64,000 nucleotides of DNA, taken from an uncultured Spirochaetota bacterium. GTDB lineage: Bacteria > Spirochaetota > Spirochaetia > SZUA-6 > Fen-1364. The position numbers and the translations under genes are program-made. The notes under the pieces are model-generated. The model was not told where the DNA came from. It ran no database searches and saw nothing but the letters and a program-made list of their open reading frames with translations. This document shows positions 2,378-25,223 of the stretch, in pieces (the first letter of the stretch is position 1; the number at the start of each line of letters is the position of its first letter). The stretch lies in NCBI GenBank assembly GCA_963745235.1, contig CAVUXE010000033.1, positions 64,536 through 128,535 of the forward strand, written 5' to 3'.

Positions 2378-4411
2378 ATGGCGATCGAGGAGTACCGGCG
2401 CAAGCGTGACTTCAAGAAGACCTCCGAGCCGGCCCCGCGGCGCGCAAAGGGGCAGGGGAATGGATTTGTCGTTCATCGCCACGAGGCCCGCAACCTCCAC
2501 TACGACCTTCGCATCGAGGCGGGCGGGGCGCTTGCCTGCTGGGCCGTGCCGAAGGGGTTCTCCTACACGCCAGCGGACAAGCGGCTTGCCGTGCACGTGG
2601 AGGACCATCCCCTCCTGTACAAGGACTGGGAGGGAACGATCCCGAAGGGGCAGTACGGCGCCGGGACCATGAAGATCTGGGACGCCGGCACCTACGAGGT
2701 CCTGAAGGCGCCGAACATCACGAAGGCGATCGAGAAGGGCGAGCTGAAGCTGGAGCTGAAAGGCCGGCGCTTGCGGGGCGAATGGCACATGGTCCAGACA
2801 AAGCAGGAGGAGGGAAAGAACTGGCTCCTGTTCAAGGCTCGGGACCGGTACGTCGGCTCCGGGAGCGACCTCTTCGGAGGAGCGGACCTGGGCCGCGCCG
2901 TCCAGAAGCCCCTTCCGCGCAGCCTGCCCCGCATGGAGGCCTCCCCGGGCAGGCAGGCCTTCAACGATCCGGACTGGCTCTTCGAGCCCGCGTTCGTCGG
3001 CACGCGCGTCCTGGCACGGGTGGAGGGAGACAGGGTAGGTCTTCGCTCGAGCTCGGAGGACCTCGCGGGCCGCCTCCCCGGCATCGTCAAAGCTCTTGCT
3101 GTTGTTCGGGCAGAGACGGCTGTGTTCGACGGAATTGTCGTGGCCCTGGATGAGCACGGGAAGCCGTCGGAGGCCGCGCTTGCCGCGGAGCTGGAATCAG
3201 GCGGCTCAAGGGCGGTCCTCTACCTCTTCGATGTGCTGTACGCGGAGGAATGGGACTTGAGAAAGCTCGCTCTCCGGGAGCGCAAGGCGGTCCTGCGGGC
3301 GCTGCTTCCTGAATCAGGGAAGCTTTTCCTGGTGGATGCCGTGCCGGAGCGCGGGGAGGCGCTGGCGCAGGCGGCGGCGGAATCCGGCCTGCCGGCCATC
3401 GTGGCAAAAAAGTCGGCCAGCCAGTACCGCGCAGGGGCCTCCGAGGACTGGCTGCTGATCCCGGCAGCCACGGGCCAGTCAAAGCCAGACTCTGCGCCGC
3501 GCCCCGCCCGTCGGCGGGAAGGCGGTGAGCCGTCCTTCGTGGTAACACACCCGCGAAAGGTGTATTGGCCGGACCAGGGCTACACGAAGGGAGACCTTGT
3601 GAGCTACTACGACAGGGTGGCCAACTGGATCCTGCCGTATCTCGAGGACCGACCCCTGCACCTGTACCGTTGGCCGGACGGCATCCGCGGCAAGTCGTTC
3701 TACCAGAAGCAGCTTCCCGAGGACATCCTCAACCAGGTGGAGACGGTCGACGTTTCCCGCGACGGGGAGGGTCCGGTCTTCTACGCCATGTGCAACGACA
3801 GAAAGACGCTTCTCACCCTCATCAACACGGGCAGCATCGACCTTCATCCGTGGATGTCGCACAAAGGCAGCCTGGATTCCCCTGACTGGGCGTTTATAGA
3901 CCTGGATCCCAAGGAGGCACCCTTTTCCAGCGTCATAAAGATCGCCCGGACCGTCGGGAGGCTCTTGAGGGGTGTCGGCATCGAGCCCTACCTGAAGACG
4001 TCCGGCTCGACGGGGCTTCACGTCTGCATCCCCTTGCAGCCGGGCTACACTTTCGACCAGAGCAGGATGTTCAGCGAAGCAGTCGCGCGCCTCGTTGTTC
4101 GAGACCACGCTGACATTGCCACGGTGGAGCGCGTGGTGAGCCGCCGGGAGGGCCGGGTCTATGTCGACTTCCTGCAGAACCGCCGGGAGCAGACCATCGT
4201 GCCGCCCTATGTTGTTCGGCCCGTGGAGGCAGCCTCCGTATCCATGCCGCTGGCGTGGGACGAGCTGGAAACGGAGCTCTCGGTCGCGGACTTCACGCTT
4301 CTGAATGCGCCGGCGCGGATAGAGAAGACGGGAGACCTGTTTCGAACGGCGCTGACGGCGCCGCAGGACCTCGGGCCGGCAATCGAAGCGCTGGGCAAAT
4401 ACCTCTCGTAA
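2378..4411 (+). CDS. ligD: LigD-like protein: 3'-phosphoesterase + degenerate ligase domain + primase-polymerase domain
   Basis: PE motifs HEARNLHYDLR and VEDHPLLY; Pol motifs FYQK, IDLDP, KTSG, YVDFLQN; middle domain is ligase-like but lacks catalytic residues. Confidence 0.92.
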   Translation: MAIEEYRRKRDFKKTSEPAPRRAKGQGNGFVVHRHEARNLHYDLRIEAGGALACWAVPKGFSYTPADKRLAVHVEDHPLLYKDWEGTIPKGQYGAGTMKIWDAGTYEVLKAPNITKAIEKGELKLELKGRRLRGEWHMVQTKQEEGKNWLLFKARDRYVGSGSDLFGGADLGRAVQKPLPRSLPRMEASPGRQAFNDPDWLFEPAFVGTRVLARVEGDRVGLRSSSEDLAGRLPGIVKALAVVRAETAVFDGIVVALDEHGKPSEAALAAELESGGSRAVLYLFDVLYAEEWDLRKLALRERKAVLRALLPESGKLFLVDAVPERGEALAQAAAESGLPAIVAKKSASQYRAGASEDWLLIPAATGQSKPDSAPRPARRREGGEPSFVVTHPRKVYWPDQGYTKGDLVSYYDRVANWILPYLEDRPLHLYRWPDGIRGKSFYQKQLPEDILNQVETVDVSRDGEGPVFYAMCNDRKTLLTLINTGSIDLHPWMSHKGSLDSPDWAFIDLDPKEAPFSSVIKIARTVGRLLRGVGIEPYLKTSGSTGLHVCIPLQPGYTFDQSRMFSEAVARLVVRDHADIATVERVVSRREGRVYVDFLQNRREQTIVPPYVVRPVEAASVSMPLAWDELETELSVADFTLLNAPARIEKTGDLFRTALTAPQDLGPAIEALGKYLS

Positions 4412-4420
4412 GGAACGTTC

Positions 4421-7400
4421 ATGCAGAAAGAAGCAACAGGCCTGCGCCTTGCGGCCACCGACATCTCCAATCATCTTGCCTGCCGGCACCTGACGCAGTT
4501 GGATCGCGCCGTCGCGGAGGGCCTGCGTGCCGCGCCGGCCTGGAGGGACCCCGCTCTTGCGGTCCTGCAGCAGCGCGGTTTCGCGCATGAGCGGGCCTAC
4601 ATCCAGAGCCTGCGGGAAAAGGGGCTTGCCATCGTCGAGCCGGCACAGGAGGGCGGCAAGCTGACCGCGGAGCAGACCCGGGAGGCCATGCGCGCCGGCG
4701 CGCAGGCCCTCGTGCAGGCGGAGCTTCGCAGGGACGGGTGGATCGGCCGCGCGGACGTTCTTCTCAAGGTGAGCAGGCCCAGCCGGCTGGGTGGCTGGTC
4801 CTACGAAGTGGCGGACACGAAGCTGGCAGAGGAGACGCGCGCGGGAGCCGTGCTTCAGCTCTGCCTGTATTCCGAGCTGGTTGCCGACGTGCAGGGCGTG
4901 ACTCCTGAATGGATGCACGTGGTGAAACCGGGGCCGGACTTCCCGCGTGAGAGCTTTCGCTTTGATGACTTCGGCGCCTACTATCGCCTGATCCGCGGCC
5001 GGCTGGAGCAGGTCATTGCGGCCCCGCCGTCTTCTTCGACGTATCCGGATCCGGTGCCTCACTGCGACATATGCCGCTGGTGGAGCGTGTGCGACGCGCG
5101 CAGGCACGCGGATGACAACCTCTGCCTGGTGGCCGGCATGCGGCCGCTGCACCGAAGCGAGATCCAGGGCCAGGGAATCAATACGCTGGCGCAGTATGCG
5201 GAAGAGCCGCGGCCCTTTCGGCGGAAACCGGAGCGGGGGAGCCCTGAAGCTTTCATCAGGGCGCACGGCCAGGCTCGCATACAGCTGGATGGAAGGAAGG
5301 CGGGCGCGCCGCGCTACCGCCTGCTGCCGCAGGAACCCGGGCTCGGATTCTTCCTTCTTCCTGAGCCTGACAGCGGGGACATCTTTTTCGACATCGAGTC
5401 AGATCCTTTTGCCGGTGAGGAGGGCATGGAGTACCTCCTGGGTTTTGCGTTCGCCGGGCTCGGCAAGGAGGCGCCGCAGTACACGGCGCTGTGGGCCTTG
5501 GATCCGACGGAAGAGCGAAAGGCGCTGGAGCAGCTGATTGACTTCATCATGGAGCGCTGGCGTGCCCATCCCGGCATGCACATCTACCATTTTTCGCCCT
5601 ACGAGCCTGGCGCGGTGAAGCGCCTGATTGGCAGGCATGGCACTCGGGAGGCGGACCTGGACCAGGTGCTCCGCGCGGAGCGGTTCGTTGACCTCCTTGC
5701 CGTGACTCGCCACGGCCTTCAGGCCAGCGTTGAAAGCTACTCTCTGAAGGAGCTGGAGCAGTTCCACGGGTTCACGCGGACAATCGAGCTTCCAGCCGCC
5801 GCTGCCGCGCTGCGGCGGCTGGCAAAAGCGCTGGAGCTGACGGGGGCGCAGGACATCGCCCCGGAGGACAGCGCGGCGGTTTCCGCCTACAACCGGGATG
5901 ACTGCCTCTCAACCGCTTTGCTGAGAGACTGGCTGGAAGCTCGACGCTCGGAAGCAGAGCGGCAGGGGGGATCCATCCCACGGCCCCTCAATAAAACCGG
6001 GGATGCAAGTGAGGCCGTTGAGGAACGGGCTGCCGATATCCAGGTCCTGTTCGAGCGGTTGACGAACGGTCTTCCTGACGAGCGCACCGCGTGGGGACCG
6101 GCGGAGCGCGCACGGTGGCTCCTCGCCCACCAGCTGGAGTACTTCCGGCGGGAGGACAAGTGCGCGTGGTGGGAGTACTTCCGCATCCATGGCCTGGATT
6201 TCGAAGATCTCATGGAAGAGCGCAAGGCCATAACCGGGCTTCAGTTCGTTGGCCAGGTCGGGTCTGGCTCCCGGCTTCCCGTCCACCGCTACAGTTTTCC
6301 CGAGCAGGAGGTGGACCCTGACGAGGGAAAGACCCTCCAGGAGGTCGGAACGAAAGTGCCGGTCGGGACAATGCTTTCACTTGACCTTTCGGCCCACACA
6401 ATGGACATCGCAAAAAGTGCGAGGGCGGTTGACCTGCATCCGGTGGCCGTCATGATGGATGATCACATCCGGCCGGCGCCCGTGGACAAAGCGTTCCTGG
6501 ACCTCGCGCGCTCGATCGCGGCTCACGGGGTGGAGGGCGCAGGGCCGTTTCGCGCGGCGCGGGACCTCCTTCTTGGCTCAAAGCCCCGGCTGCGCACGAC
6601 TGCTGGCGGATCGCTTCGAAAGGATGGAGAAAACGTCGTGGATGCGGCGGTCAGGCTGGCAAGAGATCTGGACAGCAGCGTCCTCCCCATTCAGGGGCCG
6701 CCGGGATCCGGCAAGACGTTCACCGGGGCGCGGATGATCGTCGCCCTTGCGCGGGAAGGAAAGCGCATCGGCGTCACGGCTGTCAGCCACAAGGTCATTC
6801 AGAAGCTGCTCATGGAAGCGCTGACTGCGGCAGCGGAGGCCGGCGTGCCGGTCAGGGCGATGCGGAAGGACAGGAGGGCGGACGGCGAGGTGGTTGAGGG
6901 GGTGCTCGTGACAAAGGAGAACGCGAGGCTCCTCAGCGGCCTCGACCAGGGCGCCGTGGTTGGAGGCACCGCCTGGTTCTGGTCCCAGGAAGACATGAAG
7001 GAAGCCGTGGACTATCTCTTCGTTGACGAGGCCGGACAGATGTCGCTGGCGCACGTTCTGGCGACCTCCCGGTCCGCGCGGAACCTCGTGCTGCTGGGGG
7101 ACCCGCAGCAGCTGGAACAGCCGCAGAAGGGCGCCCATCCCGAAGGGGCGGAGGTTGCCGCCCTCGTTCACATCCTGGCCGGGCACAAGACCATCTCGAA
7201 CGACGCAGGCCTTTTCCTGGACGTGACCTGGAGGCTGCATCCGCGGCATCTGCGCATTCACTTCCGAGCTGTTCTACGAAAGCAGGCTCTTCGCTCGCGC
7301 CGGTCTTGAAAAGCAATCTCTCGGCGGGACCGCCCACTTTGCGGGAAGCGGGCTTTTCTACGTGCCGGTCGAGCACACCGGGAACCAGAACAGCAGCAGG

Positions 7401-7835
7401 GAGGAAGTGGAGGCGGTCTGGCGCATCGTCACGGAGCTTCGAAGCGGGGCATCCTGGACGGATGTCAAGGGCAGGACAAGACCCCTGGGCCAGGCCGACA
7501 TTCTCGTGGTGGCCCCGTACAACGCCCAGGTTGCGGCCCTTGGACGTCGACTCGGCGACACGGCACGCGTCGGTACGGTGGACAAGTTCCAGGGCCAGGA
7601 AGCGCCGGTGGTCATCTATTCCATGACAAGCTCATCCGCGCAGGATGCCCCGCGCGGCATGAGCTTCCTGTACAGCCCCAACCGACTGAATGTCGCCACC
7701 AGCCGCGCGCGCTGCGCCAGCATCCTGGTCTCCTCTCGACGGCTCCTGGAGCCGGAGTGCGGCAGCCCGGACCAGATGCGCTGGGCCAACGGCCTGTGCC
7801 GCTACCGGGAGATGGCCACGGAGGTTGCCATCTAG
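4421..7835 (+). CDS. TM0106-family RecB-like nuclease + RNase H-like domain + SF1 helicase (one frameshift near 7246)
   Basis: ADVL...EVADTKL nuclease motif, FFDIE, GPPGSGKT, DEAGQ, GDPQQL, TVDKFQGQE, NRLNVATSRA; removing one base near 7246 joins the two ORFs. Confidence 0.88.
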
Positions 7836-7845
7836 CCCGCTCGTG

Positions 7846-8527
7846 CTAGTAGGCGAGCTCGAATCCGAATGCGCCGACGCCGATTCGCGGCACGAACGTG
7901 ATGGCCCCCTGGTCGACATTTCGCGTCGCTGCATGAGCGGCATCACTGGCGGCCCAGTGCCTGACTATCTGGTCCACGATCACGCCACCCAGGAAAACCC
8001 CGAAGGCCGGCAGGTAATCGACAATGCTGTGTCCGTTCCATGCGTCGCTGATGCTCGAGAAAGAATCCCTGAAGTAGTCTATCCGGTCGAAGCGCAGATC
8101 AGAGGGCAGGCTGTAGTAGACGCCCAGGAGAGTTCCGGCGAGCGTCGCCAGGTCCAGGGCAAGAAAACCGAATCCGCTTCCCGTGTTCCCCGTCTCGAAC
8201 TGCCCGAGCCCGGGAAGAGCCAGGGAGTGCAGGGAGATGGCCCTGACATACTGATCCTTCTGCGCGGCAATGCTGAGCCTGCTCACGCAGGGAGACCATG
8301 GCGGCCACATCGAAGTCCCCCAGCTTCTGCTGACCCATCTCGGACTGGATCTTGAGGATCTCAGCGGAGTAGTAGGGACCCGCTTCCGGCGGCCGCATCC
8401 CGGGGAACTGCTGTGACGGGAACCAGGGGCCCTGCGGGACGGCAAAAAGGGCGGCCGGCAGAAGAGCGACCGCAAGCACAACAAGGGCGCGTTTCACTTT
8501 GGTTTCTCCTTCCGCAAAGTGAAACAA
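7846..8527 (-). CDS. Hypothetical exported/membrane protein (frameshift near 8281)
   Basis: Signal-peptide-like start in the 8099..8527 ORF continues into the 7846 ORF (LSIAAQK...SLALPGLGQF) after one extra G. Confidence 0.6.
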
Positions 8528-8556
8528 CCGCGGCCGCCCGATGTGTCACCCCGGGG

Positions 8557-8772
8557 CTAAACCGCTCCGCCGAGCCGCTTGTATTCCTCTATCTCCCACG
8601 ACGTGGCGGGGTGATACCAGCCGCGGTACTTTTCCAGGTAGCCCGAGTCAACGGGTTCTTCTGCAAGCCTGTTCGCCCTGTCTATCCGGTAGCCTTTGAT
8701 CTTCAAGGGCTGCTCCGAGAAGACCCTCACATAGTCGCAGCGGGGATGGCCATTCCAGGGCCGGTTTTTCAT
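8557..8772 (-). CDS. Small hypothetical protein, 71 aa
   Basis: ORF MKNRPWNGHPRC... directly downstream of a sigma70-like promoter. Confidence 0.6.
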   Translation of the reverse strand: MKNRPWNGHPRCDYVRVFSEQPLKIKGYRIDRANRLAEEPVDSGYLEKYRGWYHPATSWEIEEYKRLGGAV

Positions 8773-8790
8773 GTACAGTGAGATCACAAC

Positions 8791-8822
8791 GTATACTATA
8801 CATATGTATAGTATACTGTCAA
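8791..8822 (-). promoter_or_regulatory. Sigma70-like promoter overlaid by a perfect 26-bp palindrome
   Basis: TTGACA (8822-8817), TATAGT/TAGTAT -10 candidates; palindrome GTATACTATACATATGTATAGTATAC at 8791-8816. Confidence 0.75.
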
Positions 8823-9370
8823 GACTTCGGCTCGTAGGAAAGGAGGACATTCCCCGAACGGAACGTCCTGCTCCTGATAAGCTTCAGCACCCGCGTGCCC
8901 TCCGTGAACAAGGGCTTGCCGTTTCCCAGCACCACGGGGTTCAGCATGATCCGAAGCTCATCGATCAAGCCCGTGCCCATGAGGCTGGTCGTGAGATCCG
9001 AGCTGCCGAATATCGCCATGTCCTTGCCGGGAAGCCTCTTCAGCTTCTCTATCTCCTGCGCGGCGTTCTCTTTCACAAGCCGCGAGTTGCTCCATTCGAC
9101 TTTCCGGAGCGTTCTGGAAAACACGAGCTTCGAAATGCTGTTCATTCGTCCTGCCACAACCGGATCGTTTCTCAGAGCCGTCGGCGTTGGCCAATAACCT
9201 GCCATCAGCTCATAGGTGACGCGTCCGAACAGGAGGGTATCGATTTCGTCCAGCTGTTCCACGGCGAAGGAGTTGAACTCCGCGTCCACGTTGTGCCAGC
9301 GTATGTCCCTGTTCGGACCTTCGAAGAACCCGTCCAGGGTCATCATGTTGAACATGAAGAGCTTTCTCAA
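8819..9370 (-). CDS. Dihydrofolate reductase/RibD C-terminal family protein
   Basis: MTLDGF, LLFGRVTY, GSS, LIDEL, PVVLGNG. Confidence 0.9.
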   Translation of the reverse strand: MRKLFMFNMMTLDGFFEGPNRDIRWHNVDAEFNSFAVEQLDEIDTLLFGRVTYELMAGYWPTPTALRNDPVVAGRMNSISKLVFSRTLRKVEWSNSRLVKENAAQEIEKLKRLPGKDMAIFGSSDLTTSLMGTGLIDELRIMLNPVVLGNGKPLFTEGTRVLKLIRSRTFRSGNVLLSYEPKS

Positions 9371-9377
9371 ACGCGTG

Positions 9378-10760
9378 TCACCCCTCCGAGCCTGACTGCC
9401 TCAGGTGCTGAGGCTGGATGGACCCGGCGGCGCGAAAGCTGCGCAAATACAGCGCCCCGCCCAGGATGACAACCACCGCAAAAGCAAGCATCACGTTGGT
9501 GTAGCCGAACCCTTTCGCAATGCCTGCCACAGGCAGGATCCGGAAGTCCAGCCACCCGCCCGTGAGAATCTTGCCGACCAGCGCAGTGCCCACCGCACCG
9601 GATATGATGCCCACCAGGTTGAAGAGGCCCATACCGATGCCCGTTTCCTGCTCGTCAAGGGTCTGGGAGACCGCATTGATCATTGCCGTCTGGAAGAGAG
9701 AAAACCCGACATACGTGAGAAGCAGCGCGGCGGCGATTATCAGCGCCGAAATGCTCAGGAGAACAGCCATGACGAGAATGCTGGTCGCCAGCAGCGCAAG
9801 GCCGATGGCCACCACGAAGCTGTTTCCTCTCCGATCGGATAGTCTCCCCGCGATGGGCCCGAAGACCACCGAGCTGATTGCCCCCGGGAACAGGACGAGC
9901 CCGATCTGGCTGCTGGAAAGATGGTGAATATCGTTCAGCATGAGAGGAATGAGGAAGATCGTTCCGATGACAACCGAGAAGAGGCAGAATCCGACAATCA
10001 CGCCGCTGCGGAACCTGGCGTTCATGAACAGGGATGGTTTGATGAACGGATCTGCGGCGGTCATGATGCGCAGGACGAAAAGGAAAAGCAGCCCGAGGAA
10101 CGCCACGAGGTAGTACCACGCGCTGAAGTTCAGGTAGACGATCAGTGTTCCGACGCTCGTGGCTACCAGCATGGCGCCGGGAATGTCCACTGTCCCCCTG
10201 CGGCGGGGCTCCCGGGGCAGCTCTCTGTTGAAAAATGGGATGGAAACGAGCATGAGCAGGGGAATCAGGAACAGGTACGGCCAGTGAAGCGTTCCTGACA
10301 CAAAGCCTCCGAGGACCGGGCCAAGTCCGATCGCAAGAGACACCGTGGAGGTGATGAGACCGAAGATCCGCCCTCGTTCCGATGGCTCGAAATACCGGGC
10401 CGCAATGATGAAGATCAACGCGGGAATGGCGGAGCCCCCGATTCCCTGGATTGCCCTCGCGGCGATGACCAGGGGGTACGAGGACTGCAGCGCGAAGCCC
10501 AGGACGGAGCCGATGCTGTAGATGACCACTCCGACGAGGATCAGCCCGCGCATGCTGTATATGTCAGCCAGCCTGCCGTAGATGACAGAGCCGATCCCGA
10601 AGAAAACCATGAATATCGTCATCATCCAGCTGACCCCCGAGGGCGTCAGCGCGAACTGGCGGGCGATCATGGGCGTCGACACGTTGAACACCGTTTCATT
10701 CAGGACCGCAAAGAATATGAGATATGTGATCCAGGGGACAAGTTTGCGCAAGGAAATCAT
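9378..10760 (-). CDS. MFS efflux transporter, 14-TM, Tet(K)/Tet(L)-like
   Basis: LNETVFNVS, GRLAD motif A, GLGPVLGG antiporter motif. Confidence 0.85.
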   Translation of the reverse strand: MISLRKLVPWITYLIFFAVLNETVFNVSTPMIARQFALTPSGVSWMMTIFMVFFGIGSVIYGRLADIYSMRGLILVGVVIYSIGSVLGFALQSSYPLVIAARAIQGIGGSAIPALIFIIAARYFEPSERGRIFGLITSTVSLAIGLGPVLGGFVSGTLHWPYLFLIPLLMLVSIPFFNRELPREPRRRGTVDIPGAMLVATSVGTLIVYLNFSAWYYLVAFLGLLFLFVLRIMTAADPFIKPSLFMNARFRSGVIVGFCLFSVVIGTIFLIPLMLNDIHHLSSSQIGLVLFPGAISSVVFGPIAGRLSDRRGNSFVVAIGLALLATSILVMAVLLSISALIIAAALLLTYVGFSLFQTAMINAVSQTLDEQETGIGMGLFNLVGIISGAVGTALVGKILTGGWLDFRILPVAGIAKGFGYTNVMLAFAVVVILGGALYLRSFRAAGSIQPQHLRQSGSEG

Positions 10761-10878: not shown

Positions 10879-12042
10879 TCAGTCCTCGCTGTCGAGCGAC
10901 CCCTGGCGCAGGAGCGTCAGGTGCGCCAGGCTGGGGAACGCTTTCTGGCAGATGGCGCGATGCTCGAGGGCCTCGGCGAACCTGCCCATGCGATCCAGAA
11001 CCGTGACGAGATTGCAGTGGGGCTCGGGGTAGTCGGGCTCCATGGAAAGGGCCATTTCGTAGGCGTGCGCCCCGTCCTCCAGCTTGCCCAGCGCCACCAG
11101 TGAATTGCCCAGGTTGTTCCATGCCTCCGCGAAGTTGTGGTCCGCCTCGATTGCCTGCAGGTAGCGCTCCGCGGCGCTGGCCTCCCGTCCCAGGTCATAG
11201 AGGACGTTGCCGAGGTTGAAGAAGGCATCAGGCTGGGGAGATGAGACCAGCGCGCGCGTGTACATCTGCACCGCGGATTCCAGGTCTCCGGATTCTTCCG
11301 CCTCAACGGCCTTTTCGAACCAGTCCCCCACGGCCTCCGCCACCGCATCGCGGCTTTCCGCGGGAAACAGCGACACGACCGCCGCGCCATGGTCTGCCTG
11401 GAAATCCATCAGGCGCTGGCCGCTGGGCTCGACCCAGCTTCCGTCCGGCAGCCGCAGCCGCAGGCCGGTGGCGTAGGCCTCCAATCGGCCCAGGAGACGA
11501 TCTCCGTCGGGAAGCCATCGTGCGATCTCTGACAGGCTTCTGTGGATCTGGGACGCCGGCACTCCGGACGCCGTGAGCCTGTTCAGGTTGCGGGCGGTCA
11601 GGATGTCCTTGAACTCGAACCAGGCAAGCCGGTTTGTCAGGCGGGCCGGCTGGAGAAGGCCTTTGCGGACCCAGCCGCGCACCTGGGACAGCGGCGCCTC
11701 AACGATGCGGCTCACCTGCTCAACCGTGTAGAGCTTCGAGAAATCTTCCCGGTCATCTTCGGCGCCCAGGAGGCGCAGGAACTCCTGCTCCTCCACGAGC
11801 CTGATTGATGCGCCCTGCTTCTTGAGCGCCTGGAAAACCTCCAGGTTGCGGGAGATGCCTCCGTCGGAGGTGAGATGGCCAAGAGCATTCCCCGCCACCA
11901 GGATGGCGGTTGTCGGCCCCGGCTCACGGGCGTGGCGGCCTCCGGCCTTGAGGATGCGTTCAACGGCTTCCGCCCTGGTCATGGAGAACAGGCGGCCGGT
12001 CAGGGCAACTTCCTTGTCCGCTAAGGGTGAGACTTCAGCCAT
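10879..12042 (-). CDS. BRCT + MerR-type HTH + TPR protein
   Basis: LADKEVALTGRLFSMTR...AGG...ILVAG...EQEFLRLL (LigA-type BRCT); YTVEQVS...WVRKGLL HTH; FNLGN and WNNLGN TPR repeats. Confidence 0.85.
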   Translation of the reverse strand: MAEVSPLADKEVALTGRLFSMTRAEAVERILKAGGRHAREPGPTTAILVAGNALGHLTSDGGISRNLEVFQALKKQGASIRLVEEQEFLRLLGAEDDREDFSKLYTVEQVSRIVEAPLSQVRGWVRKGLLQPARLTNRLAWFEFKDILTARNLNRLTASGVPASQIHRSLSEIARWLPDGDRLLGRLEAYATGLRLRLPDGSWVEPSGQRLMDFQADHGAAVVSLFPAESRDAVAEAVGDWFEKAVEAEESGDLESAVQMYTRALVSSPQPDAFFNLGNVLYDLGREASAAERYLQAIEADHNFAEAWNNLGNSLVALGKLEDGAHAYEMALSMEPDYPEPHCNLVTVLDRMGRFAEALEHRAICQKAFPSLAHLTLLRQGSLDSED

Positions 12043-12046
12043 GCGA

Positions 12047-12946
12047 CTACTCTTCGATCAGCCCTTCGAAGACCGGGGCCCGCAGCAGCCCCGCTTCCGT
12101 GAGCTCCGCAAAGCTTACCTCGCAGTAGAGGCCAGGCTCAACCCATAGTGCGCGCTCGGGGCAGGCCACCAGGGGCGCCGCCCGGGGGTGCTCTCTCACA
12201 AGAGCGTTCATTTTTGCTCGCATGGACTCGGTAAAGCCCCCCCCGACCCTCCCCAGGTAGCGCAGCGGCCCCGGCTCCTCCCCCGGAAGCCCGCTGCCTG
12301 CGACCAGCAGGCACTGGAAGTCTTTGCCCGGCTTCTCGATGAACCCGATGATTGCAGCCTGGATCTTCAGTCGCCGCTTGATCTTTATCCAGGCGCCGTT
12401 TCGCTTTCCGGCTGCGTAGGTGCTGGCCGCGCGCTTGGCAACCACGCCTTCAATGCCCTGCTCGCAGGCTTGCCGGTACAGGGCCTTCCCGTTGGCCATG
12501 ACGCCTTCAGACAGGAGAAGCTCCGGGCAGGCCGCCGCCTTCACAATCCGTTCCAGGATCTGCCGGCGCTCGGAAAACGGCAGCGCGAGGCGGGCTTCGA
12601 AGTCTTCGTACAGCACGTCGAAGGCGACAAACCTGACCTGAGAGGAAGTCCCCTTTCGCCCACGGCTGAGCATGAGGTCGAAATCAGGCTTGCCGTCGCG
12701 AAAAGCTACAATCTCGCCGTCCAGGGCGAGCCCCGACGGGAGCGCGCGAAGCGGGGCGAGGTCGGGAAATCTCTCCAGGAGGTCGATGCTGTTGCGACTC
12801 ATCAGGCGGACGGTGCCGCGCTCAATCATCGCGCCGGCGCGAAAGCCGTCCCACTTGAACTCGAAGAAATGCGCCTCCGAATCGAAGGGCTGACCGTGGA
12901 CGGCAAGCATGGGGGGCACGAACTGCGGAAGCGCTTTGGTCGGCAT
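12047..12946 (-). CDS. Stand-alone ATP-dependent DNA ligase (adenylation + OB domains)
   Basis: EFKWDGFR, SRN, LDGEI, FDVL, EGVVAK, WIKIK, LRAPVF. Confidence 0.93.
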   Translation of the reverse strand: MPTKALPQFVPPMLAVHGQPFDSEAHFFEFKWDGFRAGAMIERGTVRLMSRNSIDLLERFPDLAPLRALPSGLALDGEIVAFRDGKPDFDLMLSRGRKGTSSQVRFVAFDVLYEDFEARLALPFSERRQILERIVKAAACPELLLSEGVMANGKALYRQACEQGIEGVVAKRAASTYAAGKRNGAWIKIKRRLKIQAAIIGFIEKPGKDFQCLLVAGSGLPGEEPGPLRYLGRVGGGFTESMRAKMNALVREHPRAAPLVACPERALWVEPGLYCEVSFAELTEAGLLRAPVFEGLIEE

Positions 12947-12960
12947 CCCCCCTAATATAC

Positions 12961-12990
12961 TGTAACCAGGAGCGCTCCCCCCCATCTAAT
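12961..12990 (+). promoter_or_regulatory. Putative ECF sigma promoter
   Basis: TGTAACC-N15-CATCTAAT just before ATG 12996; same motif recurs at 14069. Confidence 0.6.
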
Positions 12991-12995
12991 GGCAG

Positions 12996-13436
12996 ATGAA
13001 TGGCATGAAGCTCCTGGGCCACCCCCTGCACCCGGCCATTGTTCATTTCCCCGTGTCCGCCTGGACCGCCGTTCTCGCAACCGATGCGCTTTCCTTGTGT
13101 CTCGGTGACCCGCTGTGGCACCGGATCTCCGAGTGGCTTCTCATCATCGGAGCAGTCACCGCGCTCGGCGCAATGACAGCGGGCTTCATCGACCTCATTG
13201 CGCTTCCCGCGGGCCAGCCGGCGCAGCAGAAGGCGCTTCGACACATGTATGTCATGACCACGGCGTGGGCAGTCTACGTGATCGACCTGCTCGTGCGTCT
13301 CGCGCAGCTGCCGGGATGGGTTGGCCTGGTGTTGTCAGCGGCCGGCTTTTTCACCCTTCTGGTTGGAACCCACTTCGGAGCACAGCTTGTGTACGATTTT
13401 GGCGTCGGCCGGACAGGACGCCGACCTTCTCCATGA
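12996..13436 (+). CDS. DUF2231-family membrane protein
   Basis: GHPLHPAIVHFP, G.QLVY.FGVG, four TM segments. Confidence 0.87.
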   Translation: MNGMKLLGHPLHPAIVHFPVSAWTAVLATDALSLCLGDPLWHRISEWLLIIGAVTALGAMTAGFIDLIALPAGQPAQQKALRHMYVMTTAWAVYVIDLLVRLAQLPGWVGLVLSAAGFFTLLVGTHFGAQLVYDFGVGRTGRRPSP

Positions 13437-14037
13437 CGCGCTTCGTCAAGGCGTTGCAGCGATCACCCAGGAACCCGTAGAGGGAAATATCGGGCATCTG
13501 TTGGCGCAGCCCCTCCCGCAGGAGCCGCTTCGCCCTGTGGAGGCGCACTTTCGCGTTTGACGGGCTGATCCCCAGGACTGCCGCTGTCTCAGCCACCGAC
13601 ATGTGCTCCAGCTCCCGAAGGACGAAGACCACGCGGTAGTTTGGCGGCAACGCGTCAACCGTGCACTCGATACGACGCGCCATCTGCTTCTGCGCGAGGG
13701 CAAGCTCCTTGTCATCCTCCTCTGCTGCCCGTCCTTGCGCCGCATCCAGGGCGACCTCCACCCGCCGCGCCCGGCTTCGAAGTGACGCCAGCGCGCAGTT
13801 GATGAGGATTCTCGTGAGCCACGTGGAGAAGAGCGCTTTTCCCTGGAACCGCGGGAGCCCGGTGAATGCCTTGAGGTAGGCCTCCTGCATCACGTCCTCC
13901 ACTTCCGCTTCATCGTGGAGGAAGGCGCGCGCCACGCGATAGAGCCGCTGGTTGTGCCGCCTGACCAGGACCTCGTAGAGGAACGTCTCACCGTCGCGAA
14001 CGCGTTCCACGATCTGCGTGTCCGGATCCCCTGTCAT
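13351..14037 (-). CDS. ECF RNA polymerase sigma factor with C-terminal FLGDRC extension
   Basis: Region 2 (EDVMQEAY, FSTWLTRI), region 4 (VAETAAVLGIS...KVRLHRA). Confidence 0.9.
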   Translation of the reverse strand: MTGDPDTQIVERVRDGETFLYEVLVRRHNQRLYRVARAFLHDEAEVEDVMQEAYLKAFTGLPRFQGKALFSTWLTRILINCALASLRSRARRVEVALDAAQGRAAEEDDKELALAQKQMARRIECTVDALPPNYRVVFVLRELEHMSVAETAAVLGISPSNAKVRLHRAKRLLREGLRQQMPDISLYGFLGDRCNALTKRVMEKVGVLSGRRQNRTQAVLRSGFQPEG

Positions 14038-14068
14038 CACGTCCAAGATAATGATTCCCGGGGCGGCG

Positions 14069-14099
14069 TGTAACCTTTTGCGCGTGTGCAGCATCGAAT
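14069..14099 (+). promoter_or_regulatory. Putative ECF sigma promoter
   Basis: TGTAACC-N16-CATCGAAT just before ATG 14104. Confidence 0.6.
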
Positions 14100-14103
14100 A
14101 GGT

Positions 14104-14454
14104 ATGATCATGGTTTACATCTGCATCGTTCTTTTCGCCATTGCAGCAGTCTTTGGCGTCATCAACGTCGTGAGGATCGTGGCGGCAGACCGCGCGCCGC
14201 GGGCAACCGTGTACATTCACGGCGCATTCGCCGGCGTGTCCCTGGTGCTGCTGGTGATCTTTTCGATCGTACACTCGCAGGCCGCGCCGATTGTCGCGCT
14301 CATCCTCTTCATCATCGCGGCCCTTGGCGGCTTTCTCCTGTTCGGCATAGATGTTGCCACGAAGCAACCGCCCAAATGGCTCGGGTTCGTCCACGGCGCA
14401 GTAGCGGTCGCGGGTTTCGTTTTCCTGCTTGTCTTCGCATTCGCCGGGGCATAG
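14104..14454 (+). CDS. Small 4-TM membrane protein with two HG motifs
   Basis: Four hydrophobic helices; YIHGA and FVHGA. Confidence 0.75.
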   Translation: MIMVYICIVLFAIAAVFGVINVVRIVAADRAPRATVYIHGAFAGVSLVLLVIFSIVHSQAAPIVALILFIIAALGGFLLFGIDVATKQPPKWLGFVHGAVAVAGFVFLLVFAFAGA

Positions 14455-14513
14455 CCGCGCACGCAAGGCACTGCTTCCTTGATGGCGGTCACGGGCCATG
14501 ATACCGTGGCCGC

Positions 14514-15311
14514 ATGCCCGAAGCAGTCAAGCCGAGAGACCTCACAATTTCGGGAAGGAAAGTCCATGCATGGATGGGCGGGGCCGGCCCCGCGCTCCTC
14601 CTCCTCCACGCGGCCTGGGGCAATGCGGAGATGAGCTGGTCCGCCGTCTGGGACGAGCTTGCAAACGCCTTCGCGGTCGTGGCCCCGGACATGCCAGGGT
14701 TCGCTGCCTCGGAGCCGGTGGAGCGACCTGGGGTTTCAGGAAGCGCCCGGCAGATCATGGACCTGCTGGACTCCTTGAAGACGGATCGCTTTGCAGTGGT
14801 CGGGAGCTCCTTCGGCGCCGCCGTTGCCATCGAGATCGCCTCGGCGTTTCCTGATCGGGTGAGCCACCTCGTGGTTGTGAACGGCACGAACCTTCCCGCC
14901 GTTCCCGGTCTCATGAAAAGCATCATCAGCATTCCTTTTGTCAAAGGACGCTTCAGCCGGTTGATCAAGAACATGTCCTGGTCCGAAAAGGCGTTCGCGC
15001 GGGGCTTTCCGAACCCTGCGGCCCTGCCCAGGGGGTTCATCGACAAGGTGCGAAGCTTCAAAGACGCCCATGGCATGACCGGCTTTCAAGCGGTCATGGA
15101 TCAGGCCGGACGGCAGTCCCGGCCGCCGGTACCCACCACAGTCATTTGGGGCACGGGAGATCGCCTCGTGTCGCCCGCGCAGATGAGATCCTTCCTCAAA
15201 TGGCTTGGCAGGCACGAGTACGTGCCCCTGGAGGGCGCGGGTCACATGCCGCAGGTGGAACGGCCGCGGGAGTTCTCGGCTGCGCTGCGCATGGCCGTCT
15301 CCCAGCGCTAA
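14514..15311 (+). CDS. Alpha/beta hydrolase
   Basis: LLLHA, DMPGF, GSSFG, GAGHMPQ. Confidence 0.88.
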   Translation: MPEAVKPRDLTISGRKVHAWMGGAGPALLLLHAAWGNAEMSWSAVWDELANAFAVVAPDMPGFAASEPVERPGVSGSARQIMDLLDSLKTDRFAVVGSSFGAAVAIEIASAFPDRVSHLVVVNGTNLPAVPGLMKSIISIPFVKGRFSRLIKNMSWSEKAFARGFPNPAALPRGFIDKVRSFKDAHGMTGFQAVMDQAGRQSRPPVPTTVIWGTGDRLVSPAQMRSFLKWLGRHEYVPLEGAGHMPQVERPREFSAALRMAVSQR

Positions 15312-17747: not shown

Positions 17748-17775
17748 GCCGACGACTGACGCCCCGTTTCTGCGG

Positions 17776-19270
17776 ATGCACGGGATCGTTGTCGCATACG
17801 GGTCCCTCGTCGCCAACGACAACATCGATCTCGAAGTGCAAAGGGGGGAGATCCGCGCCCTCCTGGGTGAGAACGGGGCAGGGAAGACGACCCTGATGAA
17901 GGCCCTGGTCGGCCTTGCCCCCCTGAAGAGCGGGACACTATCGCTGAACGGGCAGGCCATCACCGACATCAGCCCGGTTGCCGCGCGCAATGCGGGCATC
18001 GGGATGGTCCATCAGCACTTCATGCTGATCCCGACCCTGACGGTGGCACAGAACGTCTGCATTGGATTGCGAAGCGCCGGGTACCCGTTCCCGGACTCCA
18101 GGAAGGTTTCGGCGAGCCTCCAGGACCTCTCCGAGCAATATAGACTGAAGGTGAATCCGGCGGCCCGCGTCTCGGATCTCTCCGTGGGGGAGCAGCAACG
18201 GGTGGAAATCCTCAAGACCCTGTACCGAGGCGCAATGCTCCTTGTCCTTGACGAGCCGACATCCGTCCTGATCCCCCAGGAGATCGACGGGTTGTTCGAA
18301 ATCATTCGCGGCCTGTCCGCTCTTGGCACTGCGGTCATTTTCATCAGCCACAAGCTGAATGAAGTCATGAACATCAGCCAGACTGTCACCGTCCTTCGAA
18401 ACGGGAGAGTTGCGGCAACCCGGGCCACCAGGGAAACCAACGCCCGGGAGCTTGCGAGGTTGATGGTGGGCCGCGACATGGAGGATCTGCCCGCCGCCCC
18501 CTCCCTGGCCGCATCCGCGCCGCTTGTGGCGCGGGTCCACGGGCTGCGATACGTGGACCCGCGCGGGGTGAGCACGCTGCGCGGGATAGACCTCGACATC
18601 CATGCCGGTGAGATCCACGGCATTGCCCGGCGTGGACGGGAATGGGCAGGTGGAGCTGGCGAGGATAGTCGCCGGGATTCTCCCGGCTTCCTCGGGGACG
18701 GTCCTGCTGGACGGAAAGGACATCACGCGCCTGAATCCGGCGAAGCGGATCCAGGCCGGCCTGGCATACATACCCGCGGACCGTCAGCGCAGCGCGCTCG
18801 CCATGGAGCTCTCGATCTTCGACAACCTGATGCTGAAGGCGAGCGACCGTCCACCGTTTTCCGCCCACGGGTTTCTGAACTTCGCGCGGCTGAAAGAGCT
18901 TGTGGACGCGTCGGTCAAGGATTTCGACATCCGGTGCACGAGCACCGAACAGGCAGTCCGGACCCTCTCCGGAGGCAACCAGCAGAAGCTTGTCCTTGCC
19001 CGCGAGCTTCGCGCCAACCCCCGCCTGATCGTCGCGGTGCAGCCGACGCACGGGCTGGATGTCAGCGCAACCCACTACGTCCATTCCATGCTGCTGGAAC
19101 AGCGGCGCAAGGGCTGCGCAATCCTCCTGATCTCCACCGAGCTTGACGAGATCCTTTCCCTGTCGAACAGGCTGTCCGTCATCTATGAGGGGACCCTTTC
19201 GGCCACATTCGACCGCGCCCAGGCAAACAGGGAAACCCTGGGCCTCCTGATGGCCGGCAAGAGGCCATGA
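17776..19270 (+). CDS. ABC transporter ATP-binding protein, double domain (frameshift near 18627)
   Basis: GENGAGKT, LSVGEQQR, LSGGNQQK; extra C in GCCC splits the ORF; start uncertain. Confidence 0.88.
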
Positions 19271-19271
19271 G

Positions 19272-20294: not shown

Positions 20295-20295
20295 G

Positions 20296-21957: not shown

Positions 21958-21989
21958 CGTCCCCGAATACCCAGGAAGGTGGTCTTGCA

Positions 21990-23348: not shown

Positions 23349-23370
23349 ACGGACGCCGCGGACTTTTCCG

Positions 23371-23688: not shown

Positions 23689-23834
23689 GGGGCGAAGCAT
23701 AGCAGAAAAGCATCGATTTTGTGTGCCAGGGGCTTCCGATAGAGGCGCATTCGATGGATCCCGGTGAGGCTTGAGGACGGCACGCTTCCCGACTACACTT
23801 GGAGAAGGAGATGCTGCGGCGTCAGGAGGCCGGG

Positions 23835-24287: not shown

Positions 24288-24309
24288 CGCAGGCGGCCCC
24301 GGGGCCTGC

Positions 24310-25223
24310 TCAGCTCGCCTTCTTCTTCCGCGCCGTGGTGACCGCAGCGGCGGTCTTCGCCGGCTTCGCGCTCGGCGCCTGCTTCAGCCCTGCCTTCACC
24401 TTCTTCTTTTCCCCGTTCTCTACCGGAGTGCCGCCGCCTGCCGCCTGCGCCTCGGCGACGCTTCGCTTCAGGGCCTCCATCAGGTTGATGATCTTGGGCT
24501 CCTCGGGGTCACGCACTTGCACGACTTCCTTGCCTTCGATCTTCAGCTGGATGAGCTTCGTGAGCTTCTCCTTGTACACGTCCTTGTAGTGGCCGTAGTC
24601 GAAGCTCTTGATCATCGACGCCTTGATGAGCGTGTCAGTGAGGGACATTTCCGCCTCGGAGAGCTGGGTCTCAGCGATCTCATCCTTGAACGCGGAGGCC
24701 GACTTCACCTCGTCCTTTCGGGTGAGCACGGTCATGGCCAGCACGCCGTCGATGGGCCGAACCAGCACTACCTGTTCCTTCTGCGAGATGACGACCTCCG
24801 CGACGGCGCAGACCTTGTTCGCCTCCATGCTCTTCATGAGCAGGCTGTAGGGCTTCTGGCCCACGGGCCCATCAGGGGTCAGGTAGTAGGTGCGGCCCGC
24901 CATGTAGATGCTGGAGAGCTGGTCCGGCTTGATGAACCCGTCGATGCGCACGGACTTGTCGCTCTCCGTGCGCAGCTTATCGAGCTCCTCCTCATCCACG
25001 ATGACATACTGACCCTTGGCGTACTCATAGCCCTTGACGATTTCATCCTGGAGACCTCCCCCACCTCGGGGGCAAACTTCTTGTACTGGATGCGCGTGTG
25101 CGTCTTGGCATGAAGCTGATGAAGCGTGATATCGCTGCCGGTCGCGGTGGCCGTGTAGGCCTTTACCGGAACAGAGACCAGGCTGAGCTTGAGAAAGCCC
25201 TTCCACGATGCGTGGGCTGCCAT
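24310..25223 (-). CDS. ku: Ku protein (frameshift near 25050)
   Basis: WKGFLKLSLVSVPVK, IVKGYE, YYLTPD, INLMEALKRS, Lys/Ala-rich tail; one missing C restores the frame. Confidence 0.92.

Follow-up and report, generated by a model that had tools for sequence, protein, structure and literature searches.

The window, that is, the whole 64,000-nucleotide stretch of contig from an uncultured Spirochaetota bacterium analysed here, carries genes for a LigD-like protein with a defective ligase module (LigD-psi), a stand-alone ligase, a ligase-associated helper protein and Ku, together with several neighbours:

1713..2345, minus strand: Abhydrolase_11 alpha/beta hydrolase (PF20408, E 2e-75), divergent from LigD-psi across a 32-nt gap
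2378..4411, plus strand: LigD-psi, 677 aa; 3'-phosphoesterase (PE), pseudo-ligase nucleotidyltransferase (NTase) lacking Lys and OB, and AEP polymerase (Pol)
about 2387-2845, plus strand: PE domain of LigD-psi (Pfam, NCBIfam)
about 2951-3454, plus strand: pseudo-ligase NTase domain of LigD-psi, without Lys or OB (Pfam, motif mapping)
about 3542-4342, plus strand: AEP polymerase domain of LigD-psi (Pfam, NCBIfam)
4421..7835, plus strand: TM0106/RecB-like nuclease with RNase-H-like and SF1 (AAA_11/AAA_12) helicase parts, 9 nt past the LigD-psi stop
10879..12042, minus strand: ligase-associated helper, 387 aa, starting 4 nt past the ligase stop
about 10939-11322, minus strand: C-terminal TPR domain of the helper, helical repeats (Pfam TPR)
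about 11515-11736, minus strand: MerR-type winged HTH of the helper (Pfam MerR_1, profile, fold match)
about 11770-12036, minus strand: BRCT domain of the helper, LigA/RFC1-type (family profile, fold match)
12047..12985, minus strand: stand-alone LigD-type ATP-dependent DNA ligase (NTase and OB), 312 aa, all motifs intact
24310..25223, minus strand: Ku, in two frames in the assembly, with a junction near 25049
25252..25280, minus strand: candidate sigma-70 promoter of Ku (TTGACT, 17 nt, TAGCTT), inferred

The five genes of the initial annotation are thus all present, within a few codons of where it had placed them, but two of them, Ku and the nuclease-helicase, are each split over two frames.

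LigD-psi keeps both of its end-processing domains. Pfam places LigD_N at residues 33-139 (E 1.8e-39) and LigD_Prim-Pol at residues 403-655 (E 1.6e-81), and the NCBIfam models for PE (TIGR02777, 197.3 bits vs. a cut-off of 144) and Pol (TIGR02778, 230 vs. 214.7 bits) both score above threshold, while the full-length LigD model TIGR02776 stays under its own (346.9 vs. 373.2 bits). PE residues H33, H35, H41, D43, R45, H77 and Y81 are invariant (n = 34 sequences) and, mapped to Pseudomonas residue numbers, are what we take to be the His/Asp/Arg/Tyr active-site set; in Pol, D508, D510, S542-G543, H548 and D597 are invariant, which includes the D-x-D pair and the third Asp. The ligase region gives only a weak DNA_ligase_A_M match (residues 195-359, 35.9 bits), and the OB domain (DNA_ligase_A_C, PF04679) was not found in LigD-psi by Pfam. 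Mapping its motifs by BLASTP against the window's own active ligase shows A205 and V207 at the Lys and Asp positions of motif I (K-x-D-G), I253 at the Glu of motif III, P339/A340 at the Glu-Gly of motif IV and L360/P362 at the lysines of motif V. Since only ~37 residues separate motif V from Pol, compared with 118-392 (mostly 135-230) in OB-containing representatives, the OB domain is absent.

This defect, which had been read from the single gene in the window as a dead ligase domain in a LigD with intact PE and Pol, extends to the whole family. The best-scoring 80 of 289 loci, all from MAGs (Spirochaetota, Planctomycetota and Acidobacteriota), share it: the motif III Glu and K-x-D are missing from every one of these 80 as from the window, with a single locus (L076) retaining the motif I Lys, yet without the Asp. 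Among close full-length homologues, the motif I Lys was found in 5/114 and the motif III Glu in 0/114. The same split appears among the 150 best cluster representatives, where three-domain LigDs containing an OB keep K-x-D and DGE in 99 of 100 cases and those lacking it in none of 38, the OB-less class making up 38 of the 138 three-domain representatives in that set. The dead module is nonetheless maintained, with a mean pairwise identity of 0.50 in the psi-domain, vs. 0.21 in the linker, 0.68 in PE and 0.66 in Pol, and with G208, R210, D285 and W358 invariant in 114/114 sequences and D251 and K344 in 113/114. On these alignments, the ligase module of LigD-psi is catalytically dead across the family, and LigD-psi is a conserved class rather than a product of decay or a pseudogene. 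A tblastn search of LigD-psi against plasmids, judged by size alone, returned only matches of ~2.4-2.6 kb, the size of a canonical LigD gene, and no named cultured carrier of a psi-type LigD emerged from it.

With the ligase activity of LigD-psi lost, sealing must fall to another gene, the separate ligase. This protein matches PF01068 (E 3.4e-29) and PF04679 (E 1.7e-14), and its best NCBIfam family is TIGR02779 (NHEJ_ligase_lig) at 217.4 bits, just under the 227.75 cut-off, whereas the second stand-alone-ligase model, PRK08224, reaches 95.6 of the 296 bits that it requires. All of motifs I, III, IIIa, IV and V are intact, as is the OB domain, and an alignment of 40 orthologues shows no variation at K44, D46, G47, R49, D89-G90-E91, E179-G180, K184, W199 or K201, so the enzyme appears catalytically competent. 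Its coupling to the BRCT-MerR-TPR gene holds as first proposed, but position 12946, previously given as its end, is an internal Met, and the gene reaches 12985. Besides LigD-psi, it is the genome's sole protein with an ATP-ligase domain (PF01068), although a further ligase could be missing from the assembly because the host genome is 85.7% complete with 5.87% contamination.

Ku was recognized by Ku_bact TIGR02772 on the ORF at 24310-25206 (187.6 bits vs. a cut-off of 150, NCBIfam). Its N-terminus (MAAHASWKG...) and the N-terminal strands begin at 25223 in a different frame, so that the span 24310-25223 was right but is not a single reading frame. At the junction of these frames, contigs of three runs have one additional G, behind 25049, and the L009 orthologue is a single ORF spanning Pfam Ku positions 2-188. 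Ku is thus probably intact in the organism, and the frameshift in the window an assembly indel.

Broadly, compact relatives share an operon running from Ku through the stand-alone ligase to a (BRCT)-MerR-HTH-TPR gene, convergent to the LigD-psi gene, an arrangement that recurs across dozens of independent MAGs. The ligase was Ku-adjacent or in the cluster in all 68 evaluable LigD-psi loci or genomes, and 58 of these also carried the MerR-TPR gene, mostly directly abutting; synteny thereby establishes the gene linkage that the initial annotation had considered unproven. Anchored on LigD-psi, the best 80 of 289 loci comprised 40 with helper, ligase and Ku, eight with helper and ligase, one with the helper at the locus edge, one with ligase and Ku only, 12 with a downstream flank under 2.1 kb, and 18 with long flanks and none of the three genes. 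The genomes of these last loci have an adjacent Ku-ligase pair elsewhere in 18/18 cases, directly followed by the MerR-TPR gene in nine and without it in nine (Acidobacteriota). The end of the helper gene lies within 400 nt of the LigD-psi end in 25/49 loci, and the gap between ligase and helper, 4 nt in the window, is mostly under 100 nt between matched regions elsewhere.

Co-occurrence, suggested earlier as a check, was also seen for LigD-psi and the helper across the genomes of relatives. Among 61 relative genomes, 27 had both helper and LigD-psi, one the helper only, one LigD-psi only, and 32 neither of them and no Ku, a pattern spanning 5 of 24 genera that cannot separate psi from canonical LigD because it is largely one of NHEJ present vs. 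absent. For the converse, we anchored on the helper in metagenomes, with 19 loci offering at least 900 nt upstream: the same ligase type was found in 11, a different ATP ligase of ~550 aa directly upstream in two, Ku directly upstream in two, a convergent LigD-psi in one, and nothing in the short flanks of three. Two distant helper loci (L127 and L129) have the helper after an unrelated ligase type, with neither Ku nor LigD within 10 kb. Together with the unrelated genes that separate the parts in the window, these two loci would suit a reading in which the genes are mere neighbours, LigD-psi being a decaying remnant and the ligase-helper pair serving another pathway, such as the gap or base-excision repair in which mycobacterial LigC acts with Prim-PolC. 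Synteny largely contradicts such a reading, in that most compact loci have Ku, ligase and helper in an unbroken row next to LigD-psi; moreover, in three phyla LigD-psi is encoded by full-length ORFs whose PE and Pol catalytic motifs are conserved, and the ligase best matches the LigD ligase domain and not PRK08224. We therefore consider it highly improbable.

The helper itself combines the BRCT, MerR-type HTH and TPR domains first assigned to it with a conserved beta-hairpin and a disordered linker, but the BRCT proved optional, being missing in many lineages, and a search of nine Acidobacteriota genomes did not turn up the gene. As a single sequence, the BRCT falls below the Pfam cut-off (PF00533, 20.4 vs. 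21.3 bits). The family profile, however, matches the BRCTs of LigA (2owo, E 4e-6) and RFC1 (2k6g, E 2.5e-5), compared with E 0.94 for Lig4, and a model of the N-terminal half aligns with the RFC1 BRCT in Foldseek (E 3e-4, TM 0.57, rmsd 2.2 A), the fold search on this region listing the BRCTs of RFC1, LigA, Pol mu, Lig4 and XRCC1. Profile and predicted fold would thus place the domain in the LigA/RFC1 class. Its conserved T15-G16 and R23 are putative equivalents of the phosphate-binding residues of RFC1, and the domain may bind 5'-phosphorylated DNA ends. In RFC, a 5'-DNA site adjoins the BRCT (PMC9293004). With the whole helper (AF2 model, pLDDT 87.4), the fold search returned TPR proteins only, and the N-terminal half was modelled separately for the BRCT and HTH matches; profile matches to PPR and designed-repeat PDB entries were summed weak repeats (each stretch E > 5) and were disregarded. 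Longer proteins in which the N-terminal 235 residues are fused to other parts were sought and not found, which is weak evidence, and a predicted complex of ligase and helper scored 0.00, below the mark, in a run without controls, a value that speaks neither for nor against contact. No helper homologue appeared in 400 other genomes sampled phylum-wide, which says little because the sample excluded the window's close kin. PADLOC offered no defence role, matching only mad1 (HTH, 23 bits) and PrimPol (TPR region, 17.5 bits).

The HTH raises the question of whether the helper is a transcription factor for the Ku-ligase operon, for instance one sensing damage or a peptide or protein signal via its TPR or BRCT, the rest of the split NHEJ standing as it is. 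MerR_1 (PF13411) reaches 35.7 bits (cut-off 21.6), the family profile matches the GlnR HTH (4r4e, E 1.6e-4), and the winged-HTH sequence and fold are shared with MerR regulators (profile and fold matches to GlnR/TnrA, BmrR, MtaN and CvkR). HTH plus TPR is a known regulator architecture (RNPP family), the helper is the last gene of its operon, and some sources annotate it as a MerR regulator, a close relative being labelled "DNA-binding transcriptional MerR regulator" in one of them. In addition, four Acidobacteriota loci inspected have a sigma-54 activator beside Ku and no helper, a replacement equally compatible with a regulator and with an adaptor. However, the AF2 model predicts only short helices past the wing (144-158, 163-176 and 180-186, each of at most 15 residues, then a beta-hairpin), with none of the long antiparallel coiled-coil dimerisation helix of MerR regulators, and the protein has no classical effector domain but an N-terminal BRCT of LigA/RFC1 type, a DNA-end or repair module, and a C-terminal TPR. 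The promoters tell against it as well: MerR-activated promoters typically have a 19-20 nt spacer, whereas the candidate promoters of Ku, with a TTGAC-type -35 and a TA-rich -10-like hexamer in the window and in the Spirochaetota-type loci shown, have a conserved spacer of about 17 nt. Finally, the helper is tightly coupled to the ligase gene and also follows the unrelated ligase type of L127 and L129. On balance, we regard a regulator as rather unlikely, and favor a ligase-associated adaptor.

The nuclease-helicase, initially included in the system, did not hold as a core part of it. As assembled it forms two ORFs in different frames (4421-7309 and 7362-7835), with one surplus base near 7243 relative to intact 1136-aa orthologues; this base is absent from the contigs of 3/3 other runs covering the site, so that the frameshift is probably an assembly error. 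The nuclease domain is well supported (TIGR03491, 248.8 vs. a cut-off of 97.45 bits, NCBIfam), and AAA_11 and AAA_12 match both the window pieces and the intact L002 orthologue. Such a RecB-like nuclease plus SF1 helicase architecture would suit end processing, for example resection before joining, and the gene is co-directional with LigD-psi, 9 nt downstream; in genomes, 11 Spirochaetota-type loci share this junction, as do L104 and L105 from metagenomes. Yet these are 11 of 22 Spirochaetota-type loci; nine others reaching past LigD-psi lack the gene (two more end at a contig edge), as do all Planctomycetota and Acidobacteriota loci. Moreover, 4/5 genomes without it at the locus encode an orthologue (57-70% identity) elsewhere, more than 1 Mb from LigD-psi in G482. 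An integral fifth component is thus doubtful, and the nuclease-helicase is a lineage-specific neighbour, not a core part. PADLOC suggested no defence role for it, with only partial helicase-domain matches (MkoA/MkoC, DpdJ). On the other side of LigD-psi, the Abhydrolase_11 gene adjoins it in 21/22 Spirochaetota-type loci and lies within the cluster in L043 and L060, and is a possible accessory gene. A seemingly conserved ORF of ~1,000 aa upstream of LigD-psi in Planctomycetota is probably unrelated, with weak Big_5 and beta-propeller matches on the opposite strand only.

From what the sequences show (domains present, catalytic residues lost, conservation, gene order and co-occurrence), we infer the biochemical steps, physical contacts and adaptor role of a system that the region probably encodes, namely a split NHEJ with a dead-ligase LigD-psi, a ligase acting in trans, Ku and a helper adaptor. 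Ku would bind the broken ends, and LigD-psi would clean 3' ends through PE and fill gaps or extend ends through Pol, its non-catalytic, OB-less NTase module probably serving as a surface for DNA binding or for docking, or else as a spacer. The stand-alone LigD-type ligase, encoded directly after Ku in compact relatives, would seal the strands in trans, and the helper would act as a ligase-associated DNA-end adaptor, with its BRCT and HTH on DNA and its TPR on a protein partner. In the window's lineage, an ancestral compact cluster would have been pulled apart by the insertion of the nuclease-helicase, an MFS transporter and other genes, leaving Ku ~11 kb from the ligase. It is tempting to speculate further that NHEJ in these phyla is a multi-subunit machine, in which the helper is a ligase-loading or end-bridging factor, the first prokaryotic accessory scaffold and a functional analogue of XRCC4/XRCC1, while the dead NTase module positions the trans ligase at the processed end, but we hold this extended version to be unlikely.

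Compared with the canonical PE-Lig-Pol LigD (Pseudomonas type) and Ku, the domain order is the same, TIGR02777 and TIGR02778 recognize LigD-psi too, and in relatives Ku lies in the same neighbourhood, but LigD-psi has lost the catalytic Lys along with the Glu of motif III, the lysines of motif V and the OB domain. The contrast originally drawn with a canonical, fused LigD was too strong, because "non-conventional" NHEJ, with LigD domains on separate polypeptides, is already a defined category in passages of PMC7719229, and an archaeo-prokaryotic NHEJ is described in PMC4797286. Such split systems (the archaeal Methanocella paludicola Ku/Lig/Pol/PE set, LigC-type stand-alone ligases) likewise have the ligase apart from Pol and PE, and Ku beside the ligase. 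Here, in contrast, the dead ligase module has been kept and still joins PE to Pol in one protein, and the ligase gene is followed by a fourth conserved gene, for (BRCT)-HTH-TPR. None of the words "catalytic," "inactive" and "BRCT" occurs in the passages of PMC7719229 that were searched, and in the literature searched we did not find a dead-ligase LigD with a helper described, which would make this a new form of split NHEJ. As in the BRCT-mediated ligase scaffolds of eukaryotes (Lig4 tandem BRCT-XRCC4, XRCC1 BRCT-Lig3), a BRCT is linked, here genetically, to a DNA ligase acting at breaks, but it sits on a separate protein with HTH and TPRs and is absent from many members; its sequence most resembles the BRCTs of RFC1 and of the bacterial NAD+ ligase LigA, and not that of Lig4, and we propose no homology to XRCC4 or XRCC1.

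Teaching and applications such as genome editing treat bacterial end joining as the work of two proteins, Ku and LigD. In this soil or peat bacterium, end joining seems instead to involve a ligase-less LigD, a separate ligase and a previously undescribed helper. The general picture would change with a widespread LigD class that keeps the ligase fold without its chemistry (38 of 138 three-domain representatives among the best 150), that is accompanied by a Ku-linked stand-alone ligase in every case evaluable here, and that in two phyla is joined by a conserved BRCT/HTH/TPR protein whose gene is coupled to the ligase. Surveys by domain presence may file these genomes under "conventional NHEJ," since, on our reading of the criteria in PMC7719229, a single protein would show all three LigD domains, and this count would overlook both the division of labour and the extra factor. 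With LigD-psi, the retention of a pseudoenzyme in DNA repair becomes open to test, and the helper is a candidate accessory factor of prokaryotic NHEJ.

The initial annotation had proposed a five-part NHEJ system made of LigD, a separate ligase, a BRCT-HTH-TPR protein, a nuclease-helicase and Ku, and all of these genes are real features of the window (positions 64536-128535 of contig C33). That contig is one of 104 in a MAG totalling 5.85 Mb, with 85.7% completeness and 5.87% contamination. Listing the ORFs and scanning them against protein families gave this map:

1713-2345, minus strand: Abhydrolase_11 hydrolase
2378-4411, plus strand: LigD-like protein, 677 aa
4421-7309 and 7362-7835, plus strand: RecB-like nuclease / SF1 helicase, in two frames
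7846-8484, minus strand: ORF without family
8771-9469, plus strand: ORF without family
9378-10760, minus strand: MFS transporter
10879-12042, minus strand: BRCT-MerR-TPR protein (hereafter the helper)
12047-12985, minus strand: ATP-dependent ligase, ending 4 nt before the helper gene
13351-14499, minus strand: ECF sigma factor
about 15.5-23.4 kb: BNR protein, ABC-transporter genes, creatininase, M20 peptidase
24310-25223, minus strand: Ku

Several neighbors on this map carry features of their own. The ORF at 7846-8484 (212 aa) has no match in Pfam, NCBIfam or PADLOC, and occupies the same position in L001-L004 (57-74% identity), which are among the loci closest to the window. The ECF sigma factor has an N-terminal extension of roughly 150 residues (the sigma domains span 158-360 of its 382 residues), and its start overlaps the end of an upstream 195-aa ORF (14489-15076, minus strand) that gave no match in family scans and could be an anti-sigma factor. 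Divergent from Ku lies a radical-SAM/SPASM gene (25208-26572, plus strand), whose true start is probably downstream of 25208, since the longest ORF would run over the start codon of Ku as well as its candidate promoter.

The LigD-like protein defines a class (LigD-psi) in which PE and Pol flank a ligase NTase module that is dead and has no OB domain. In the window, both PE and Pol pass the NCBIfam cut-offs for their domains (197.3 vs. 144 and 230 vs. 214.7 bits, respectively), and the whole protein falls below the full-length LigD equivalog cut-off (346.9 vs. 373.2 bits). Family scans found only a weak match to the ligase NTase model (35.9 bits) and none to the OB model. Residues 167-353 align by BLASTP to the window's active ligase at 35% identity, which pairs ligase K44, D46 and E91 with A205, V207 and I253, E179/G180 with P339/A340, and K201/K203 with L360/P362, while G208, R210, D251, D285, K344 and W358 are retained. 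Motif mapping and family scans thus agree with the initial description of a LigD with intact PE and Pol and an inactive ligase domain.

This loss is shared by the class. Almost all of the best 120 homologues in a search of 5.8 billion proteins are 650-720 aa long, and the named ones, called LigD or NHEJ ligase, come from Spirochaetia and Planctomycetota MAGs. Of these 120, 114 reach 600 aa or more; five of them have a lysine at the motif I position, and none has the motif III glutamate or the second motif V lysine. All 114 share G208, R210, D285 and W358, and D251 and K344 each persist in 113. A scan of GTDB species genomes returned 289 relatives, of which the best 80 were analyzed, all from MAGs of Spirochaetota, Planctomycetota or Acidobacteriota. 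None of these 80 has K-x-D or the motif III glutamate (L076 has the lysine, with R replacing D), and PE and Pol catalytic motifs are kept wherever the locus covers them. Mean pairwise identity is 0.68 for PE, 0.50 for the psi-NTase, 0.21 for the linker and 0.66 for Pol, values that show constraint on the dead module. Finally, among the 150 best cluster representatives from a library of 1.84 billion proteins, 100 have all three domains plus an insert the size of OB (K-x-D and DGE in 99), 38 have three regions without OB (K-x-D in none, the lysine in one), and 12 are partial. The representatives lose OB and the lysine together, and the catalytic positions have decayed variously, with the motif III glutamate still present in 12 of the 38. 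In a separate observation, seven genomes of family f68 (G448, G455, G460, G465, G470, G474 and G477) have, besides LigD-psi, a second match restricted to the Pol domain (35-39% identity, from residue 373 or 388 to about 670), probably a stand-alone polymerase paralogue.

The stand-alone ligase is best matched by the LigD ligase domain family (TIGR02779, 217.4 bits, just below the 227.75 cut-off), and its catalytic residues are all invariant across 40 orthologues. In this MAG (85.7% complete), PF01068 is found only in this ligase and in the dead LigD-psi module.

Broadly speaking, these genes travel together. Across the 80 LigD-psi loci (best 80 of 289), helper, ligase and Ku were all found in 40, helper and ligase with Ku past the locus or contig end in eight, the helper alone at the locus edge in one, and Ku and ligase without helper in one (L067); 12 had less than 2.1 kb of downstream DNA and were not evaluable, and 18 had none of the three within about 10 kb downstream. 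The usual arrangement is compact, with LigD-psi on the plus strand followed immediately by a convergent Ku-ligase-helper operon: in 25 of 49 loci, no more than 400 nt lie between the end of the helper match and LigD-psi, and the ligase and helper matches are mostly less than 100 nt apart. In the window and its nearest relatives (L001-L007), insertions separate these same genes. When the whole genomes behind the 18 "empty" loci were searched, each held Ku and ligase side by side elsewhere, and in nine a MerR-TPR gene came directly after the pair. The proposed linkage of Ku, ligase, helper and LigD-psi is thereby borne out. In the other nine genomes, all Acidobacteriota, these searches returned only generic TPR matches and no helper; at four loci inspected (L181-L184), Ku and ligase form a two-gene unit flanked by a divergent sigma-54-dependent response regulator (an activator) in all four and by a convergent NUDIX hydrolase gene in three. 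That these Acidobacteriota genomes lack the helper and place another regulator beside Ku speaks for the helper being a pure regulator, as does its position as last gene in the operon.

Two other genes recur around these loci. The Abhydrolase_11 (PF20408) hydrolase, which may be a further accessory gene, is transcribed away from LigD-psi at 21 of the 22 Spirochaetota-type loci, was also noted at the metagenome locus L105, and lies inside the cluster, adjoining the helper gene, in two Planctomycetota loci (L043, L060). A DUF72 gene (PF01904) is near Ku or LigD-psi in 13 Planctomycetota loci, either immediately upstream of Ku and co-directional with it (L024, L031, L038, L044, L048, L050, L053, L054, L056, L066, L071) or upstream of LigD-psi (L043, L060); the window's genome has DUF72 genes on other contigs only.

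Within the window's order (61 genomes), helper and LigD-psi were each detected in 28 genomes, 27 of them shared, and Ku in 26; the exceptions are G428 (410 contigs; helper without LigD-psi) and G465 (340 contigs; the converse). The other 32 genomes have none of the three, and carriers fall in five of 24 genera. This co-occurrence mostly reflects presence vs. absence of NHEJ, and related genomes are not independent. No helper was found in a phylum-wide sample of 400 other genomes, drawn from outside the window's close kin.

Anchoring on the helper gave 80 metagenome loci, including the window itself (L101); L102-L134 are true family members with matches reaching the HTH, and the rest are generic TPR proteins. 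Nineteen true members had at least 900 nt upstream: the same ligase type precedes the helper in 11, a different ATP-dependent ligase of roughly 550 aa in two (L127 and L129, 30-33% identity; separated by 77 nt in L127 and by one small ORF in L129), and Ku directly in two (L125, L126), while one has a convergent LigD-psi (L117) and three have nothing relevant in flanks of 1.0-2.4 kb. Six more short contigs carry a ligase fragment upstream. An ATP-dependent ligase thus accompanies the helper more constantly than any other neighbor. The L127 and L129 helpers have neither Ku nor LigD within 10 kb, and these loci (L127:7451-11675, L129:7635-11675) share a conserved 194-aa ORF without family after the helper homologue; their divergent ligase scores weakly against every NCBIfam ligase model.

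The AF2 model of the helper (pLDDT 87.4) suggests a BRCT-like alpha/beta unit (residues 11-92), a winged HTH (104-176), a short beta-hairpin holding the invariant G201, G208 and Q209, a disordered stretch (216-233) and helical TPR repeats (241-368). A family profile of the N-terminal half matched the BRCT domains of E. coli LigA (E 4e-6) and RFC1 (2.5e-5) as well as GlnR (1.6e-4), the single sequence aligned to LigA 596-648, and Foldseek with the N-terminal model ranked the RFC1 BRCT first (E 3e-4, TM 0.57), followed by BmrR, MtaN and CvkR. Full-length helpers occur in Spirochaetota-type and 13 Planctomycetota loci, and forms beginning at the HTH in 17 Planctomycetota loci and the f68 group; a search for longer fused forms found none, which is weak evidence. 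The MerR HTH itself and its combination with TPR repeats again favor a regulator. Against this, the model lacks a long dimerisation helix and the candidate Ku promoter appears conserved with a 17-nt spacer; a purely regulatory helper seems rather unlikely to us. These two predicted features, with the kind of BRCT and the tight coupling to two ligase types, point instead to an adaptor or ligase cofactor, which we tentatively hold to be the likeliest role; the remaining share goes to a protein that is both, or something else.

The nuclease-helicase, also counted as a system part by the initial annotation, proved peripheral. Intact orthologues have 1136 aa (TIGR03491 nuclease, RNase_H_2, AAA_11, AAA_12). 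Of the 22 Spirochaetota-type loci, 11 have the gene behind LigD-psi, as do L104 and L105; it is absent there from the nine others whose flanks extend beyond LigD-psi (two more stop at the contig end) and from every Planctomycetota and Acidobacteriota locus, and an orthologue occurs elsewhere in four of five genomes without one at the locus. We regard this gene as a lineage-specific neighbor, possibly a functional one. In the window it carries one base near 7243 that L002 and L004 lack, and the Ku frame changes near 25049. Both positions were checked against short-read contigs from four runs of four studies labeled peat or soil metagenomes, one of which may be the source sample: the base at 7243 is left out in all three covering runs, and a G is put in behind 25049 in three. 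Both genes are intact in near-identical populations. Other single-base or 2-base indels relative to up to four runs (8281, 14461, 18626, 20313, 24301, 25236) indicate that the window assembly contains indel errors or strain variants, and several lie inside ORFs (e.g., the ABC-transporter ATPase at 18626), so that ORF calls here need frameshift tolerance.

Full-text searches, covering literature outside subscription journals and supplements, returned no paper on a LigD whose ligase module is a pseudo-ligase or inactive, or on Ku or LigD with MerR, TPR or BRCT partners. A comparative NHEJ survey (PMC7719229), in the portion consulted, sorts systems by domain presence and contains none of "catalytic," "inactive," "BRCT," "Planctomyc" or "Spirochaet," nor does a 2023 preprint on NHEJ distribution; a LigD structural review (PMC8656161) applies "inactive" to PE mutants only, and a BRCT review mentions no "LigD," "MerR" or "tetratricopeptide." Overall, the region probably encodes a split NHEJ system in a form new relative to the literature searched, with protein contacts and a division of roles that we infer.
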